Shown here piece by piece: positions 2,840 to 53,524 of a stretch of DNA of 64,000 nucleotides (within the stretch, counting starts at the first letter, position 1; each line of letters begins with the position of its first letter). The position numbers and the translations under genes are program-made. The DNA lies in the IMG/VR virus record IMGVR_UViG_3300005805_000060, positions 1-64,000 of that record. The stretch is one strand, 5' to 3'. The notes beneath the pieces were generated by a model that saw only the letters and a list, made by a program, of their open reading frames with translations, did not search any database and was not told the DNA's origin. Source of the stretch: a virus (lineage: Duplodnaviria > Caudoviricetes).

Positions 2840-4224
2840 TAGAGTTTCTCGCCTGCCTCAAAGCCCCGGAACCGCAAGAAGCGCGGAAACCTCAGGCTCC
2901 AGGATCCGTCTTGGTTTTGCGTGACCGCGTCAGCTTCGACTTCAACCACAAAATCGCGAAGCTGATTGCGCCGGGCCCAGAACTCATCGCGATCGCTATC
3001 AGAAAAACCACCGCCAACATTGACATGTATAGTACGTCCATTATCCTCTCCTTCACACACAAAGGCACCCAGGCGTCCCAGGTTGCGTCCGGTGCCTTCT
3101 TCGAACCCAACAATAGTTAGATCGAAGCTTTGCACAGGCTTCCATTTCATCCACGAACTGCTGCGCTTGCACTGATAGGGTGCATCTAGATCCTTGATCA
3201 TGACGCCCTCAAAACCGTTGTCCACGGCATCACGGCTGTAGCGACGCAGCTGATCCTGCCCTGCCGCAGTGTCCAGATCTACTGCAAGTCCATCCATGAC
3301 ACGTAGGCAGTCGGTGGATTGCAGGGTGTCGCGAGCCCGCTCCAGCTGTTCCAAGCGACGGCTCTGCTGCATGTTGTAATGACCTTCTTCAAATGCTGAC
3401 AGAGGTAGGACATCAAAGATGTGATACACCATGTTCACGGTGTTGGCATTGCCCTTGCGATGCGCCTGGCGCATGAGCTTTTGAAAACTTTCTCCCACCA
3501 CTTCACCGTCTAGCACAAAGGGAAAGGTCAAGCCAAACGCACGACGATTGGATTCAATAGCTTCCTGGATATGCGGGAAGTTTTCAAATACCCGGCCATT
3601 ACGGCTGTACAGCGTGGTGCCCGTGGCAGTGACCACAGCCAACACACGCACACCATCCAGCTTGACTTCCAGTCGCTTGCGGCCCTGCATCTTGGCCGGA
3701 TGGCCTTCGCTGTCCTGGGCCAGCTGACAAGTGAACACCGGTATGCGCCAGGCGGTCCGGCCCACTACCTTGTTGATGGTCTTTTCTGACACGCCGCAGC
3801 GAAGATCCTTGATCAGCACACGGCGTGCCATCATGTTCCACTCGTCACTGTCAAACTGCTGACTCAGCACATCAATGGCTTCGCGGGCAGAATTACCAGT
3901 CACCGATCGTGTGCGCAGGCTCTCCAGGAGAGCCCAGAACTGGGGCCATGGATTGCTCTGTTCCGTGATGTCTTGAGTCTCGGGCACCTGTCGAATGTTG
4001 TAGGTCCAGAAAGGATTGTAGGTTGCATAGCAGTTGAACAAAAATGCCTGGGCATCGGCGCTGCCCAGTTTAGCGGCCATCAGGGCTTTCTCCAGCACCC
4101 GTTCTTTGTGCAAGCGGCTGTCGCTGCTTTCTAGCTCGTGAATCCACCCTGCGGCTACTCGGATGCCTCGGAATCTTTCATGTTCGGTGTCCAGGATATT
4201 TACTGTCTTGAGGCGCATACCCAT
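2839..4224 (-). CDS. lig: ATP-dependent DNA ligase (T4 gp30-like)
   Basis: KLDGVR adenylation motif, DGE, EGVMIKD, WMKWKP and C-terminal OB fold SLRFPRF. Confidence 0.95.
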   Translation of the reverse strand: MGMRLKTVNILDTEHERFRGIRVAAGWIHELESSDSRLHKERVLEKALMAAKLGSADAQAFLFNCYATYNPFWTYNIRQVPETQDITEQSNPWPQFWALLESLRTRSVTGNSAREAIDVLSQQFDSDEWNMMARRVLIKDLRCGVSEKTINKVVGRTAWRIPVFTCQLAQDSEGHPAKMQGRKRLEVKLDGVRVLAVVTATGTTLYSRNGRVFENFPHIQEAIESNRRAFGLTFPFVLDGEVVGESFQKLMRQAHRKGNANTVNMVYHIFDVLPLSAFEEGHYNMQQSRRLEQLERARDTLQSTDCLRVMDGLAVDLDTAAGQDQLRRYSRDAVDNGFEGVMIKDLDAPYQCKRSSSWMKWKPVQSFDLTIVGFEEGTGRNLGRLGAFVCEGEDNGRTIHVNVGGGFSDSDRDEFWARRNQLRDFVVEVEADAVTQNQDGSWSLRFPRFLRFRGFEAGEKL

Positions 4225-4439
4225 CAGTTAATTCTCCCTAGCACTTGCCAGATCAGTTCGTCTAGTTCACGTTGGTAACTATGACCCAGTTTACGCTGTT
4301 CGTAGATTTTGGTCAAGCTCTCTGTGACATCAATACTATTGATGTCACACCCTCGGCTTTTCAGCTCGTCAACAAGCTCTTCGGTGTCAAATTCGTCCAA
4401 CGTGACGTCTACTTCGACTTCGACTGTGCGATATACCAT
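4224..4439 (-). CDS. Small acidic hypothetical protein
   Basis: AGGAG SD before the ATG at 4439; stop overlaps the ligase start. Confidence 0.65.
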   Translation of the reverse strand: MVYRTVEVEVDVTLDEFDTEELVDELKSRGCDINSIDVTESLTKIYEQRKLGHSYQRELDELIWQVLGRIN

Positions 4440-4462
4440 GAACACTCCTATTGAATTCAAGC

Positions 4463-4491
4463 ATTGTACACTAGGAGTGTTTTGCAGTCAA
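4463..4491 (-). promoter_or_regulatory. Sigma70-type promoter TTGACT-17-TACAAT
   Basis: -35 at 4486-4491, -10 at 4463-4468. Confidence 0.75.
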
Positions 4492-4511
4492 CCGTTGCTA
4501 AGTTATTGATT

Positions 4512-5330
4512 TTATGTAGATAAATTGGACTGCGTGTAAACGCGAGCTTCGGCCACAGTGTAATTGGCATTACCTAGCTGGGCCTGTGGGGGCTGAGTGG
4601 TGGGTTGATCAGGCACGGCATTATCCCTTCCAATTCCAACACTGTCTAGAGCAGCATCATTGCGGCTCTGGCGTAGGCAACCAATTAGGGCCTGTCCAGC
4701 CTGGGAAGCCGTGTTGGCCACGCTTTCTAGATACTGAGCACTCATTCCAACTTCGGTGTCGGTGCCCTGTTGATCCAGACCCACAATGAACGCAGTCACA
4801 GGAAGCTGAGCCGTGTTGGGCAAGGTTCCCAGATCGATGCTGGCTGCGGCCTGCGCAGTGTCAGACTTGGCCCAGGCCACACTCATGGTGGTCCAGGTAG
4901 TGTTGGCCTCGGTAACTAGCCCGGTCACCGAGTCTGTTCCAATTATCACACCAATCTCATCATCTGCGGCCTGAATCAGTGCTACCAAGGCATCATCATA
5001 ACTGGAGTAAATTCCGGCTGCCGGGCCCAAAGGAATGGTAATAGTGGGTGGAGTACCATAGGTGCTGTCTACCACGCTGACCATCTGTGTGTACAGTAGA
5101 TCTAGATTGGCAGTGACTGGATTTGATATCAAGGTCACTGCTGATTCCAGTGCAGGATTTTCTCTGATGCCCGAAGCCCCGGGCAAGAGATCCGTGATCA
5201 AAAACGTGCGGTTGGGTCCAGTGCCCTGGGCCAAGGGTCCCGAATAAAATGATGCCACCGCGGCAGATATGGGAGTGACCACATTGGCCACAAGATCCAG
5301 TCCTTTAAGAGTTTGTAGGGGCGTGGTCAT
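4512..5330 (-). CDS. Putative virion (baseplate/tail) protein
   Basis: A/T/G/S-rich 272-aa ORF in the operon following PAAR; ATGA coupled. Confidence 0.55.
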   Translation of the reverse strand: MTTPLQTLKGLDLVANVVTPISAAVASFYSGPLAQGTGPNRTFLITDLLPGASGIRENPALESAVTLISNPVTANLDLLYTQMVSVVDSTYGTPPTITIPLGPAAGIYSSYDDALVALIQAADDEIGVIIGTDSVTGLVTEANTTWTTMSVAWAKSDTAQAAASIDLGTLPNTAQLPVTAFIVGLDQQGTDTEVGMSAQYLESVANTASQAGQALIGCLRQSRNDAALDSVGIGRDNAVPDQPTTQPPQAQLGNANYTVAEARVYTQSNLST

Positions 5331-36132: not shown

Positions 36133-36160
36133 TATTTACTCGAAACATAGCCTATAAATA
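36133..36160. promoter_or_regulatory. Divergent late promoters (TAAATA minus; TATAAATA plus)
   Basis: 36133-36138 faces 36118; 36153-36160 sits 5 nt before the ATG at 36166. Confidence 0.65.
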
Positions 36161-36165
36161 TTTCT

Positions 36166-36945
36166 ATGAAAACTATAGTTCTTGTCACTGGCGGGTACGA
36201 TCCGTTACATTCTGGACACATTGCATATTTTCAAGCTGCAAGTGAGCTGGGAGATCATTTGGTAGTAGGACTCAATTCAGACGAGTGGTTGGCCCGCAAA
36301 AAAGGTCGTGCGTTTATGCCACTAAGCGAGCGTCTGAATGTGGTCAAGAATTTACGCATGGTAGATGAGACCATTACCTATGATGACCGAGATGGTCACA
36401 GTATTGAAGCCATACGCAAGGTGCGTGCACAGTATCCAGACTGTCGCATCGTTTTTGCCAATGGCGGCGACCGCACTCAACAAAACATACCTGAAATGGA
36501 TTGTGGTATCGAGAATCTAGAATTTCAATTCGGGGTAGGCGGTTCGAACAAGGCCAATTCCAGCAGCTGGATTCTAGAAGAGTGGAAAGCGCCCAAGACT
36601 CCCAGGGACTGGGGATATTATCGCGTGCTGCACGAGGCGCCTGGGTGCAAGGTCAAAGAACTCACCGTAAGTCCCGGCTCAAGTCTCAGCATGCAACGCC
36701 ACCGCGACCGAGCTGAGTTTTGGTTAGTAGGAGAGGGAACAGCCACAGTATACACTATTGATTCCAGTACCGATGTTCAACTGAATGGAGTTTTTCGACG
36801 CCATGATTTCTTACATATTGCACCCAATGAATGGCACCAACTGGTCAATGAAGAATCAGATCCTCTCAAGATTGTAGAAATACAATACGGAGACCGCTGC
36901 GAAGAAGAAGATATTGAAAGGGATCAACAGGCGCGTTGGGCATGA
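36166..36945 (+). CDS. Cytidylyl/adenylyltransferase (RfaE-like) fused to mannose-6-phosphate isomerase-type cupin
   Basis: GGYDPLHSGH HxGH, FANGGDR; cupin LSMQRH..R.EFW...H and VEIQYG..CEEEDIER. Confidence 0.88.
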   Translation: MKTIVLVTGGYDPLHSGHIAYFQAASELGDHLVVGLNSDEWLARKKGRAFMPLSERLNVVKNLRMVDETITYDDRDGHSIEAIRKVRAQYPDCRIVFANGGDRTQQNIPEMDCGIENLEFQFGVGGSNKANSSSWILEEWKAPKTPRDWGYYRVLHEAPGCKVKELTVSPGSSLSMQRHRDRAEFWLVGEGTATVYTIDSSTDVQLNGVFRRHDFLHIAPNEWHQLVNEESDPLKIVEIQYGDRCEEEDIERDQQARWA

Positions 36946-50574: not shown

Positions 50575-52856
<2,282 letters not shown>

Positions 52857-52860
52857 ACCG

Positions 52861-52890
52861 TATTTATACAAATGCAAATTCGTCATACAA
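52861..52890 (-). promoter_or_regulatory. Late promoter TATAAATA overlapped by a copy of the intein-less terL insertion site
   Basis: TTG TAT GAC GAA TTT GCA TTT GTA (52890-52867) reads LY-DEFAFV and overlaps TATAAATA (52868-52861). Confidence 0.75.
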
Positions 52891-53002
52891 TTATTTTTAA
52901 AGGATTATATAATCTTTTATATAATTCTTTAAGAGATATATCTTCTTCTATCAAGGTTTTTTTATTCCTGATTTTTACAGTGGTGGTCTCACCATCTAAA
53001 CA
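52883..53002 (-). mobile_element. Atypical split intein IntN (TerL, 39 aa)
   Basis: CLDGETTTVKI...ISLKELYKRL, as in AceL/GOS-TerL-type short IntN. Confidence 0.9.
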
Positions 53003-53524
53003 ATAGAGCAAGGATATACTCATACCCCGGCCTGTGGTCTCTGTTGTGGTCTGGCTCACTATGCGGCTACCGTTATCAAATTCCAGGCTGCCCTTGTTGT
53101 AACTGGTGGCGCCGGCCCGGATATGATCGGGACAAAACTCATAGGCATAGCGTATGCGTTGCATGATTTCTTGGGCACCGGTATACTTGTGCGCGGCGAT
53201 CAAGATGGTGCTGTCAGGCACAAACATGGCATACCAGAGCAGGTAACCTGCAGCTGATGTTGACTTACCACTCTGTCTGGGCATGAGACTGATGCTGTAG
53301 CGATAGCCGTGATAGGTATTGATCAGACGTTTTTGGTATTCATATGGGTGATACAGCATGCGGCCACGTGTGGGATGCTGTATCATGAAAAAATTGTCCA
53401 TGAAGTACATGGGACCTGTCACGGGGTCCGCACACTTTATGAACTCCTCTACCTCTTGATCAGTGAAGTGTTCTCGTCGATGCGGACTTTTGACTAGAGC
53501 TGTTTCTAATTGATTGCGGACCAT
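52883..53524 (-). CDS. terL: Terminase large subunit piece 1: ATPase N-extein plus 39-aa N-intein
   Basis: YQ, PRQSGKS Walker A, GRGMSISLLY|CLDGET... Confidence 0.93.
   Translation of the reverse strand: MVRNQLETALVKSPHRREHFTDQEVEEFIKCADPVTGPMYFMDNFFMIQHPTRGRMLYHPYEYQKRLINTYHGYRYSISLMPRQSGKSTSAAGYLLWYAMFVPDSTILIAAHKYTGAQEIMQRIRYAYEFCPDHIRAGATSYNKGSLEFDNGSRIVSQTTTETTGRGMSISLLYCLDGETTTVKIRNKKTLIEEDISLKELYKRLYNPLKIIV

Follow-up and report, generated by a model that had tools for sequence, protein, structure and literature searches.

Introduction

Homing endonucleases must be restrained from harming their own carrier. To our knowledge, I-TevI, the GIY-YIG enzyme encoded by the group I td intron of phage T4, is the only one for which autorepression through a look-alike of its homing site has been proven. 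The I-TevI operator shares 15 of 20 bases with the homing site and overlaps the late promoter of the endonuclease gene (Edgell et al. 2004, reviewed in PMC2988022); the enzyme binds the two sites equally tightly and cuts the operator about 100-fold less efficiently (PMC2988022). In mobE of phage Aeh1 and in other T4-type endonuclease controls, the late promoter lies inside a hairpin that hides the ribosome-binding site.

Free-standing endonuclease genes also lie within genes that they split. Dassa et al. (2009; PMC2677866), in the passages retrieved, describe such fractured genes, among them a terminase locus from Lake Gatun whose C-terminal intein half (IntC) has 122 residues. The same passages report an RNA hairpin upstream of the endonuclease start in 15 of 16 loci, two conserved 5' motifs, and a TATAAATA box upstream of fractured-gene endonucleases; likeness of these 5' regions to the host-gene target is not mentioned in them. 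The only characterized Vsr-like (EDxHD) homing endonuclease, I-Bth0305I, is intron-encoded in recA and recognizes the motif TTxG-N6-CxAA; its specificity resides mostly in the dimer of nuclease domains, and its N-terminal contacts are largely non-specific (PMC3239194).

Here, we describe a comparative analysis of a fractured terminase gene in which a short copy of the coding sequence that follows the intein insertion point abuts the putative late promoter of the intervening endonuclease gene. We present evidence that this copy is kept by selection in related loci, and we weigh the roles that it may have.

Results

A split terminase gene with an intervening endonuclease

The window, by which we mean the whole 64-kb stretch of viral DNA analyzed here, carries a large terminase gene (terL) that is split at its Walker B motif. 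All of the relevant genes of this locus lie on the minus strand, and its parts are as follows.

53003..53524, minus strand: terL N-extein, ending in SISLLY (open reading frame; Terminase_6N and PHROG terminase matches; junction read)
53524..52883, minus strand: reading frame of the N-extein plus IntN (N-extein ending in SISLLY, 39 intein codons, TGA)
52883..53002, minus strand: IntN, 39 codons (CLDGETT...LKIIV) and the TGA stop (list of reading frames; sequence reading)
52884..52886, minus strand: upstream ATG overlapping the IntN TGA as ATGA (reading frame 51921..52886)
51921..52856, minus strand: gene of a free-standing homing endonuclease of 311 aa (reading frame; relatives)
51625..51954, minus strand: IntC, 110 codons to HFITKN (reading frame; weak Intein_splicing match)
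50575..51624, minus strand: terL C-extein from the +1 Cys (reading frame; Terminase_6N/6C matches)
51604..51621, minus strand: real C-extein half-site, GAT GAA TTT GCG TTC GTG (sequence reading; degenerate 17-mer match)

Two terminase reading frames on one strand jointly restore one protein: in Pfam and PHROG comparisons the first piece matches Terminase_6N, and the third matches the remainder of 6N, 6C and, weakly, an intein. The frame ending at 50575 begins with the 110 intein codons and continues with the rest of the terminase. IntN begins with Cys (LLY/CLDGE) and IntC ends with Asn, followed by the +1 Cys (ITKN/CDEF); the exteins read CTC TAT / TGC GAT GAA TTT GCG TTC GTG, with the N junction at 53003/53002 and the C junction at 51625/51624. 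The real half-site, directly after the +1 Cys, comprises the Walker B DE and the codons that follow. Intein-less relatives (L088, L120) read ...ILY-C-DE... without interruption, and the split intein of the window is homologous to the contiguous mini-intein of another relative (L181). With 39 residues containing block A only in IntN, and 110 residues in IntC, the break has the form of the atypical terminase split inteins, and an IntN as short as that of the window is present in all relatives. Read from its sequence, the window locus is a fractured gene: a predicted split intein with an intervening free-standing endonuclease gene.

The endonuclease gene has a GC content of 31-40% versus about 50% in the surrounding DNA, and its 3' end is overlapped by the start of IntC. 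At its 5' side, the IntN frame ends in ATT GTA TGA, with the stop at 52885..52883. The ATG at 52884..52886 is in the same frame as the endonuclease ATG and would add 10 residues. Most relatives have such an A/G-TG-A overlap (ATG or GTG over the IntN TGA), and the extension that would begin there is in frame where the spacer between promoter box and endonuclease ATG is 4 nt and out of frame wherever it is 5 nt. Coupled low-level translation of the endonuclease from terL mRNA through this overlap is possible.

An 18-nt copy of the C-extein start lies against the endonuclease gene

The DNA between the end of IntN and the endonuclease ATG contains three elements.

52867..52884, minus strand: 18-nt copy of the C-extein start (GAC GAA TTT GCA TTT GTA; DEFAFV codons), candidate operator
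52885..52890, minus strand: TTG TAT ("LY"), outside the conserved element
52861..52868, minus strand: TATAAATA, putative T4-type late-promoter box, its first two bases common to the copy

The copy straddles the IntN stop, and its source, at 51621..51604, is the run of six codons that follows the +1 Cys in the terL C-extein. It is identical to the real half-site at 14 of 18 bases, and every difference falls at a third position, in agreement with the initial annotation, which had called the differences synonymous. One base out of the IntN frame, the DNA reads TTG TAT GAC GAA TTT GCA TTT GTA and then TAA. As had also been noted at the outset, and as is borne out on the minus strand, the copy runs into TATAAATA (52868..52861), which is followed by the four bases CGGT and the endonuclease ATG at 52856.

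The initial annotation had further taken TTG TAT as part of the copy, which would then have represented the whole intein-less junction minus the Cys codon. This larger claim had to be given up: only the C-extein half is conserved in relatives, and the six "LY" positions vary freely across 33 related versions. The three bases before GAY are NGT in about half of the loci and TGT, a Cys codon, in four, which indicates that TAT in the window occupies the place of the Cys codon and not that of the N-extein Tyr. What is copied is therefore confined to the C-extein side of the rejoined junction. What stood of the original observation is the DEFAFV copy, placed against the box and the ATG.

A degenerate 17-mer for DEFAFV has two exact matches in the 64-kb window, the real site and the copy. 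The expectation is about 5e-4 such matches per window and, for DNA no more than 100 nt from the endonuclease start, about 1e-6, which excludes chance for the DEFAFV part. A chance resemblance in AT-rich spacer DNA, for which only the "LY" extension, unique to the window, looks suited, is further refuted for the DEFAFV part by the recurrence of the match in at least 33 diverged loci, and we give that explanation practically no credence.

The promoter box

TATAAATA is rare in the window, with three sites versus 0.75 expected. Four real-sized reading frames, however, have NATAAATA upstream, with their ATG 4-7 nt beyond it. Among the ATGs of unrelated genes with a NATAAATA box 4-7 nt upstream are those at 36153-36168 (+), 58985 (-) and 16719 (-), the first belonging to a cytidylyltransferase-cupin gene at 36166. 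The 4-5 nt spacing between box and ATG is seen again at other genes of related phages, and NATAAATA boxes close to the ATGs of other genes are present in L011, L020, L021, L026, L030 and L045. Judged from its motif and position, TATAAATA at the endonuclease gene is probably an active late promoter. Nothing notable in the way of a sigma-70 promoter or a terminator was found at the site.

Transcripts of T4 late promoters start about 6 nt after the box. The mRNAs here would thus be leaderless or nearly so, which would explain the absence of a regulatory hairpin, and the late mRNAs of this phage group may in general be leaderless. No Shine-Dalgarno sequence is evident by eye between the NATAAATA box and the ATG. 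A generic extended late promoter was considered as the identity of the copy and rejected, for the sequence upstream of eleven other TATAAATA sites, located in the window and in the loci fetched, is unrelated.

The copy drifts in relatives as its coding target does

Searches with the endonuclease protein and its alignments yielded about 60 viral and metagenome contigs, and at least 33 distinct related versions of the region carry the copy. Their endonucleases are 45-71% identical to that of the window over the aligned N-terminal region, and up to 73% identical by tblastn. The element common to them is T, then GAY-RAR-TTY-GCN-TTY-GTA, in which the final TA forms the first two bases of the box; 19 versions have 4 nt between box and ATG, and 14 have 5 nt. 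The initial annotation had named absence of the mimic from homologous loci as evidence that would count against it, and this check did not refute the reading: in every related version with a TATAAATA-type box before the endonuclease gene, the copy adjoins the box and is under strong purifying selection.

The mean pairwise identity is 0.94 at the 12 non-wobble positions of the copy and 0.63 at the positions that correspond to third positions in the terL phase; it is 0.42 in the IntN tail just upstream and 0.35 in the spacer before the ATG. A parsimony count of changes was made on a tree built from the N-terminal region of the endonucleases. In the copy, 28 changes fall at positions 3, 6, 9, 12 and 15 and 11 at the other twelve (binomial p = 6e-8), a substitution rate about six times greater at terL third codon positions. 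The pattern is close to that of the real site, with 48 changes at third positions versus 7 elsewhere. Two-fold degenerate positions of the copy show transitions only, with one exception, and all four bases occur at its four-fold position. In relatives, copy and real site agree at 11-17 of 18 bases.

This selection is not a coding constraint, since the copy is untranslated in at least 21 loci, where the IntN TGA overlaps its first base pair, and since its phase relative to both IntN and the endonuclease ATG differs between loci. Translation of the copy was accordingly rejected as a general explanation, even though the IntN frame runs through it in four loci. In the frame of the upstream ATG/GTG extension, the variable positions would become second codon positions, and for a +1 shift at the TGA a slippery codon is not conserved. 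Ongoing gene conversion from the adjacent real site was also rejected, the identity of copies to their own locus's target being no higher than that of permuted pairs (p = 0.73, third positions).

The copy might instead be a functionless relic of a junction: terL target DNA that the free-standing endonuclease gene brought along, or gave rise to, on entering an uninterrupted mini-intein. Between the mini-intein of L181, which is contiguous and 146 aa long, and the fractured intein of L005, homology stops just short of the copy, which places the copy at the left end of the insertion; alleles of one terL type exist side by side with an empty site, a contiguous intein or a fractured one, and the four loci in which IntN simply runs through the copy fit a relic as well. 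A neutral relic, however, would decay like its flanks, whereas non-wobble identity is 94% in the copy and 35-42% in the flanks, among endonucleases that are about 45-73% identical, and the changes avoid 12 of 17 positions. As an account of why the copy is maintained, a relic is therefore unlikely; as an account of its origin it is plausible, and it is compatible with a later function. The same division applies to the alternative offered in the initial annotation, that the copy is the site that the endonuclease cut to invade the intein: the position of the copy coincides with the left edge of the insertion, but its maintenance is left unexplained. Pre-existing target-like sequence in contiguous inteins may have been the invasion site; the matches in the L181 linker and, as an in-frame DEF, in L195 are weak and not positionally equivalent.

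The alleles of this terL type, with the junction ...SFSILY / CDETAFV, are found in public viromes in three states: empty, with the Cys retained (L088, L120), with a contiguous 146-aa mini-intein (L181/L192), and fractured (L005/L121). The search for Thr-for-Phe alleles returned mostly unrelated protein, the useful sequences being L088, L120, L121 and L181.

A small hairpin is a very unlikely function of the copy

The copy could also act as RNA or single-stranded DNA, with a hairpin of a 6-bp stem and a 4-nt loop at the IntN stop tuning termination-reinitiation or access to the endonuclease start. RNAalifold places six pairs inside the copy, and nearly all of the variation, including a recurrent G to A at position 4, preserves them as G-U or A-U pairs; the stop-start overlap A/G-TG-A is frequent; and hairpins with TATAAATA are a published pattern (Dassa et al. 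2009, PMC2677866, in the passages retrieved) that is found again in the gp41 loci fetched. The stem is nevertheless marginal, with a mean of -1.7 kcal/mol and a value of 0.0 in 9 of 34 versions, against -1.6 for the real coding site, and conservation in the 4-nt loop equals that in the stem. In the window, the fold is no better than that of shuffled sequences (z = -1.06) and leaves the start codon free; neither a stable nor a conserved hairpin lies over the endonuclease start. Identity to the terL target is also left unexplained by a hairpin, and we consider it very unlikely that structure accounts for the copy.

The copy travels with the box and the N-terminal module

The copy remains with the box where the ATG is far off, at 27 nt (L005) or 35 nt (L283). 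It is absent from three lineages that lack the box: L008/L032, in which the endonuclease reading frame is intact, L047, and Salicola phage SCTP-2. In derivatives from which the endonuclease gene has been deleted (L203/204, L219, L239 and, re-fused, L255/256), the box is gone, as is some or all of the copy. A large set of relatives, with an HNH C-terminal domain and a different IntC, ending SHQ/C, keep the same N-terminal module and the copy.

These linkages also bear on another possibility, that the copy is bound by the endonuclease for a purpose other than autorepression, as a tether between donor and recipient, as a site that recruits or activates late transcription, or as a nick site that stimulates recombination. 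The evidence of target-like selection applies equally to such a site, as does the linkage of the copy to the N-terminal module; I-Bth0305I is a stable dimer that contacts about 60 bp (PMC3239194), and one enzyme could hold two sites. Against this, the copy consistently adjoins or overlaps the box and is lost together with it, which indicates a promoter-linked role, a cut or nick in the phage's own genome would be costly, and no precedent was found in the literature searched. We hold these roles to be improbable as the main function; tethering of donor to recipient DNA during homing is a further possibility that could accompany an operator.

Several observations concern the history of the cassette. 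The Vsr-like domain pairs with an IntC ending ITKN/C and the HNH domain with one ending SHQ/C, with a C-terminal Gln (L048, L024, L026, L030, L031, L057, L060 and L062 compared with the window); the two types are interleaved on the tree of the N-terminal domain, which indicates repeated exchange of the cassette's right half. In the set that has lost the endonuclease (L203/L204, L219, L239, L255/L256, L194), deletions extend from inside the copy to the 3' end of the endonuclease gene and leave the intein still split, except that in L255/L256 the IntN stop TGA is now TCA and the intein is thereby contiguous again. The endonuclease of L286, a 318-kb contig, begins with an additional fused domain of about 125 aa; its ATG follows a truncated copy, the box is gone, and the real site reads CDEMAFV. 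In Salicola phage SCTP-2 (L069; MF360958.1, genes 224-225) and L047, the endonuclease and IntC-C-extein stand alone after divergently transcribed genes, which implies that N-extein-IntN must lie elsewhere in the genome as an unlinked split terminase; gene 224 of SCTP-2, annotated as terminase large subunit, holds a further intein. A single terL in L001 (2344-7784) is interrupted three times: near the P-loop by a contiguous intein bearing a LAGLIDADG-type motif, at the site of this analysis by the fractured intein, and once more by another fractured intein, whose endonuclease, of 343 aa, is a different one and has neither box nor target copy.

Among 13 fractured gp41 loci, matches above those of shuffled sequences were obtained only in L320, with L327 at the same place, and in L312. 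The DNA from a CATAAATA-like box to the ATG of a GIY-YIG endonuclease includes, in both L320 and L327, a conserved stretch that resembles the gp41 N-extein (SATQTT codons; 14/18 in L320, 12/18 in L327). The match in L312 is an 18-mer, flanked by two box-like motifs, that agrees with the C-extein at 14/18 (shuffle p ~0.003). These stretches may, by sequence likeness, be further target copies. Wider searches, with gp41 endonuclease relatives and for the Vsr-like domain in other host genes, returned the same families only.

The endonuclease has a predicted Vsr-type nuclease domain

Two parts of the protein can be distinguished.

52437..52856, minus strand: N-terminal module, about aa 1-140, ending in GRNGY (alignment; presumed DNA-binding part)
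51921..52286, minus strand: C-terminal nuclease domain, Vsr-like fold (AF2 model and structural matches)

The endonuclease has no match among Pfam families or PDB sequences. In the AF2 model, the C-terminal 121 residues (pLDDT 91, pTM 0.80) are most similar to Vsr (Z 7.6, rmsd 3.4 A, 103 residues aligned; a second Vsr structure, Z 7.2) and, third, to the catalytic domain of I-Bth0305I (3r3p; Z 6.7, rmsd 3.6 A, 87 aligned). These Z values are middling, and Foldseek against 1vsr gives a probability of 0.96 but E = 0.03. Columns of D, E, H and D are invariant in 14 endonuclease homologues. On the strength of the model, the C-terminal domain is assigned a Vsr-type nuclease fold.

The N-terminal module is common to the Vsr-like and HNH versions. 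Its region is modeled as an extended array of short hairpin-helix modules (pLDDT 87.6, pTM 0.49), and comparison of its fold with the PDB gave no significant match; the top structural rows, tandem zinc-finger arrays at E ~1, were not counted as evidence.

Discussion

A candidate operator for autorepression

An untranslated copy exists that is conserved far above its flanks, drifts as its target does, and goes together with the box and with the N-terminal module of the endonuclease. Such keeping and drifting, exactly as in the coding target, is expected of a site read by a protein that tolerates the synonymous variation of that target, and the fixed place against the promoter box fits promoter occlusion. 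On the pattern of sequence and by analogy with I-TevI, we think it somewhat probable that the copy is an operator through which the endonuclease represses its own late promoter. The enzyme would recognize the terL Walker B coding sequence of intein-less phages through its conserved N-terminal module. The same module would bind the copy of the C-extein half of the homing site, directly against a -10-type late-promoter box, and would thereby occlude the promoter and limit the enzyme's own synthesis late in infection. The copy differs from the target on the N-extein side only, and productive cutting would be avoided there because the sequence needed by the nuclease domain beside it is replaced by IntN codons. 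Both the binding of the copy by the protein and repression by that binding are what we infer from sequence. The parallel with I-TevI drawn in the initial annotation is thus retained as the best-fitting explanation, by analogy, for a kept copy of half of the junction in place of the whole.

Several observations run against the operator. The real half-site is intact beside IntC in the phage's own genome, with no known protection from self-cleavage. Specificity in I-Bth0305I lies mostly in the nuclease dimer, which is a misfit with an N-terminal module that reads the site. L008/L032 do without copy and box. The G to A at position 4 of the copy is found in seven versions, by two independent changes, and never in real targets. 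Covariation of copy and target at non-wobble positions is mixed: Thr codons are present in both in L005, where, however, the endonuclease is frameshifted, the change is in the copy only in L010, and in the target only in L031, L038 and L045. In L005, the most divergent locus, the frameshift splits the endonuclease into two reading frames (4001-4917) and may reflect decay or an assembly error. The transitions seen in the copy would, through G-U pairs, keep the weak hairpin as well. Finally, TATAAATA, taken as a promoter from its motif and position, has no more than three sites in the window.

Implications

If the operator is real, autorepression through a look-alike of the homing site has arisen in a second, unrelated enzyme lineage and in a split intein instead of an intron, and so evolves repeatedly. 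The comparative signal is unusually clean, in that an untranslated 18-mer evolves as if it still encoded a Walker B motif. Its drift directly predicts the bases that the enzyme reads, and the copy and the intein-less junction are a ready pair of substrates.

A tentative extension, which we hold to be possible and doubtful, is that copies of the target site at promoters are a general device by which free-standing, gene-fracturing endonucleases control themselves, with the allowed substitutions, since such copies escape translation, reading out a DNA-recognition profile. If so, the enzyme described here would ignore exactly the synonymous positions of its coding target, and the specificities and homing sites of uncultured endonucleases could be predicted by comparative sequence alone.

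The data set, which includes empty, contiguous, fractured, endonuclease-deleted and re-fused alleles, also bears on the origin and loss of the atypical split inteins of terminases, whose relatives serve as tools for protein ligation.

Comparison with known systems

The fractured terminase architecture, the enzyme family and the promoter box are already published (Dassa et al. 2009). In the literature searched, including the passages retrieved from that paper, no fractured-gene endonuclease was found to be described as having a copy of its target at its promoter. As far as those passages go, the terminase locus described there and that of the window have the same order (N-extein-IntN, Vsr-like endonuclease gene, IntC-C-extein), the same TATAAATA upstream of the endonuclease, and the same atypical break with a long IntC (122 versus 110 residues); the published loci have hairpins, whereas the window has no convincing one.

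Like I-Bth0305I, the window endonuclease appears, from its model, to combine a C-terminal Vsr-like nuclease fold with a multi-module N-terminal region that presumably contacts DNA, and both targets contain a pseudo-palindrome, which in the window is ACGART-N4-ATTYGT inside the half-site. The two enzymes have no match at the sequence level, however, the I-Bth0305I motif TTxG-N6-CxAA was not seen by eye in the terL site, and no operator has been described for I-Bth0305I. With the mobE-type systems the window shares a gene-splitting endonuclease that would be expressed only from late transcripts starting at TATAAATA. Control in those systems is exerted on translation through RNA structure, whereas in the window it would be exerted through a copy of the DNA target, and RNA structure is negligible.

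The closest functional parallel is I-TevI, for which binding and repression have been shown, whereas the window is known here from its sequence. The I-TevI enzyme is a GIY-YIG protein of a group I intron, and that of the window is free-standing, Vsr-like (HNH in relatives) and associated with a split intein, and hence an analogue and not a relative. The binding domain of I-TevI is C-terminal, while the presumed DNA-binding module here is N-terminal and unrelated in sequence. In the window the copy lies just upstream of the box, with 2 nt in common, and the ATG follows after 4-5 nt, which leaves no room for a regulatory hairpin of the I-TevI kind. In both systems, a look-alike of part of the homing site is found at the endonuclease gene's own TATAAATA-type late promoter, and in both the likeness is to the part of the site contacted by the DNA-binding module (presumably so in the window) and not to the cut site. 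The proposed outcome is likewise the same, the self-limitation of a potentially toxic nuclease.
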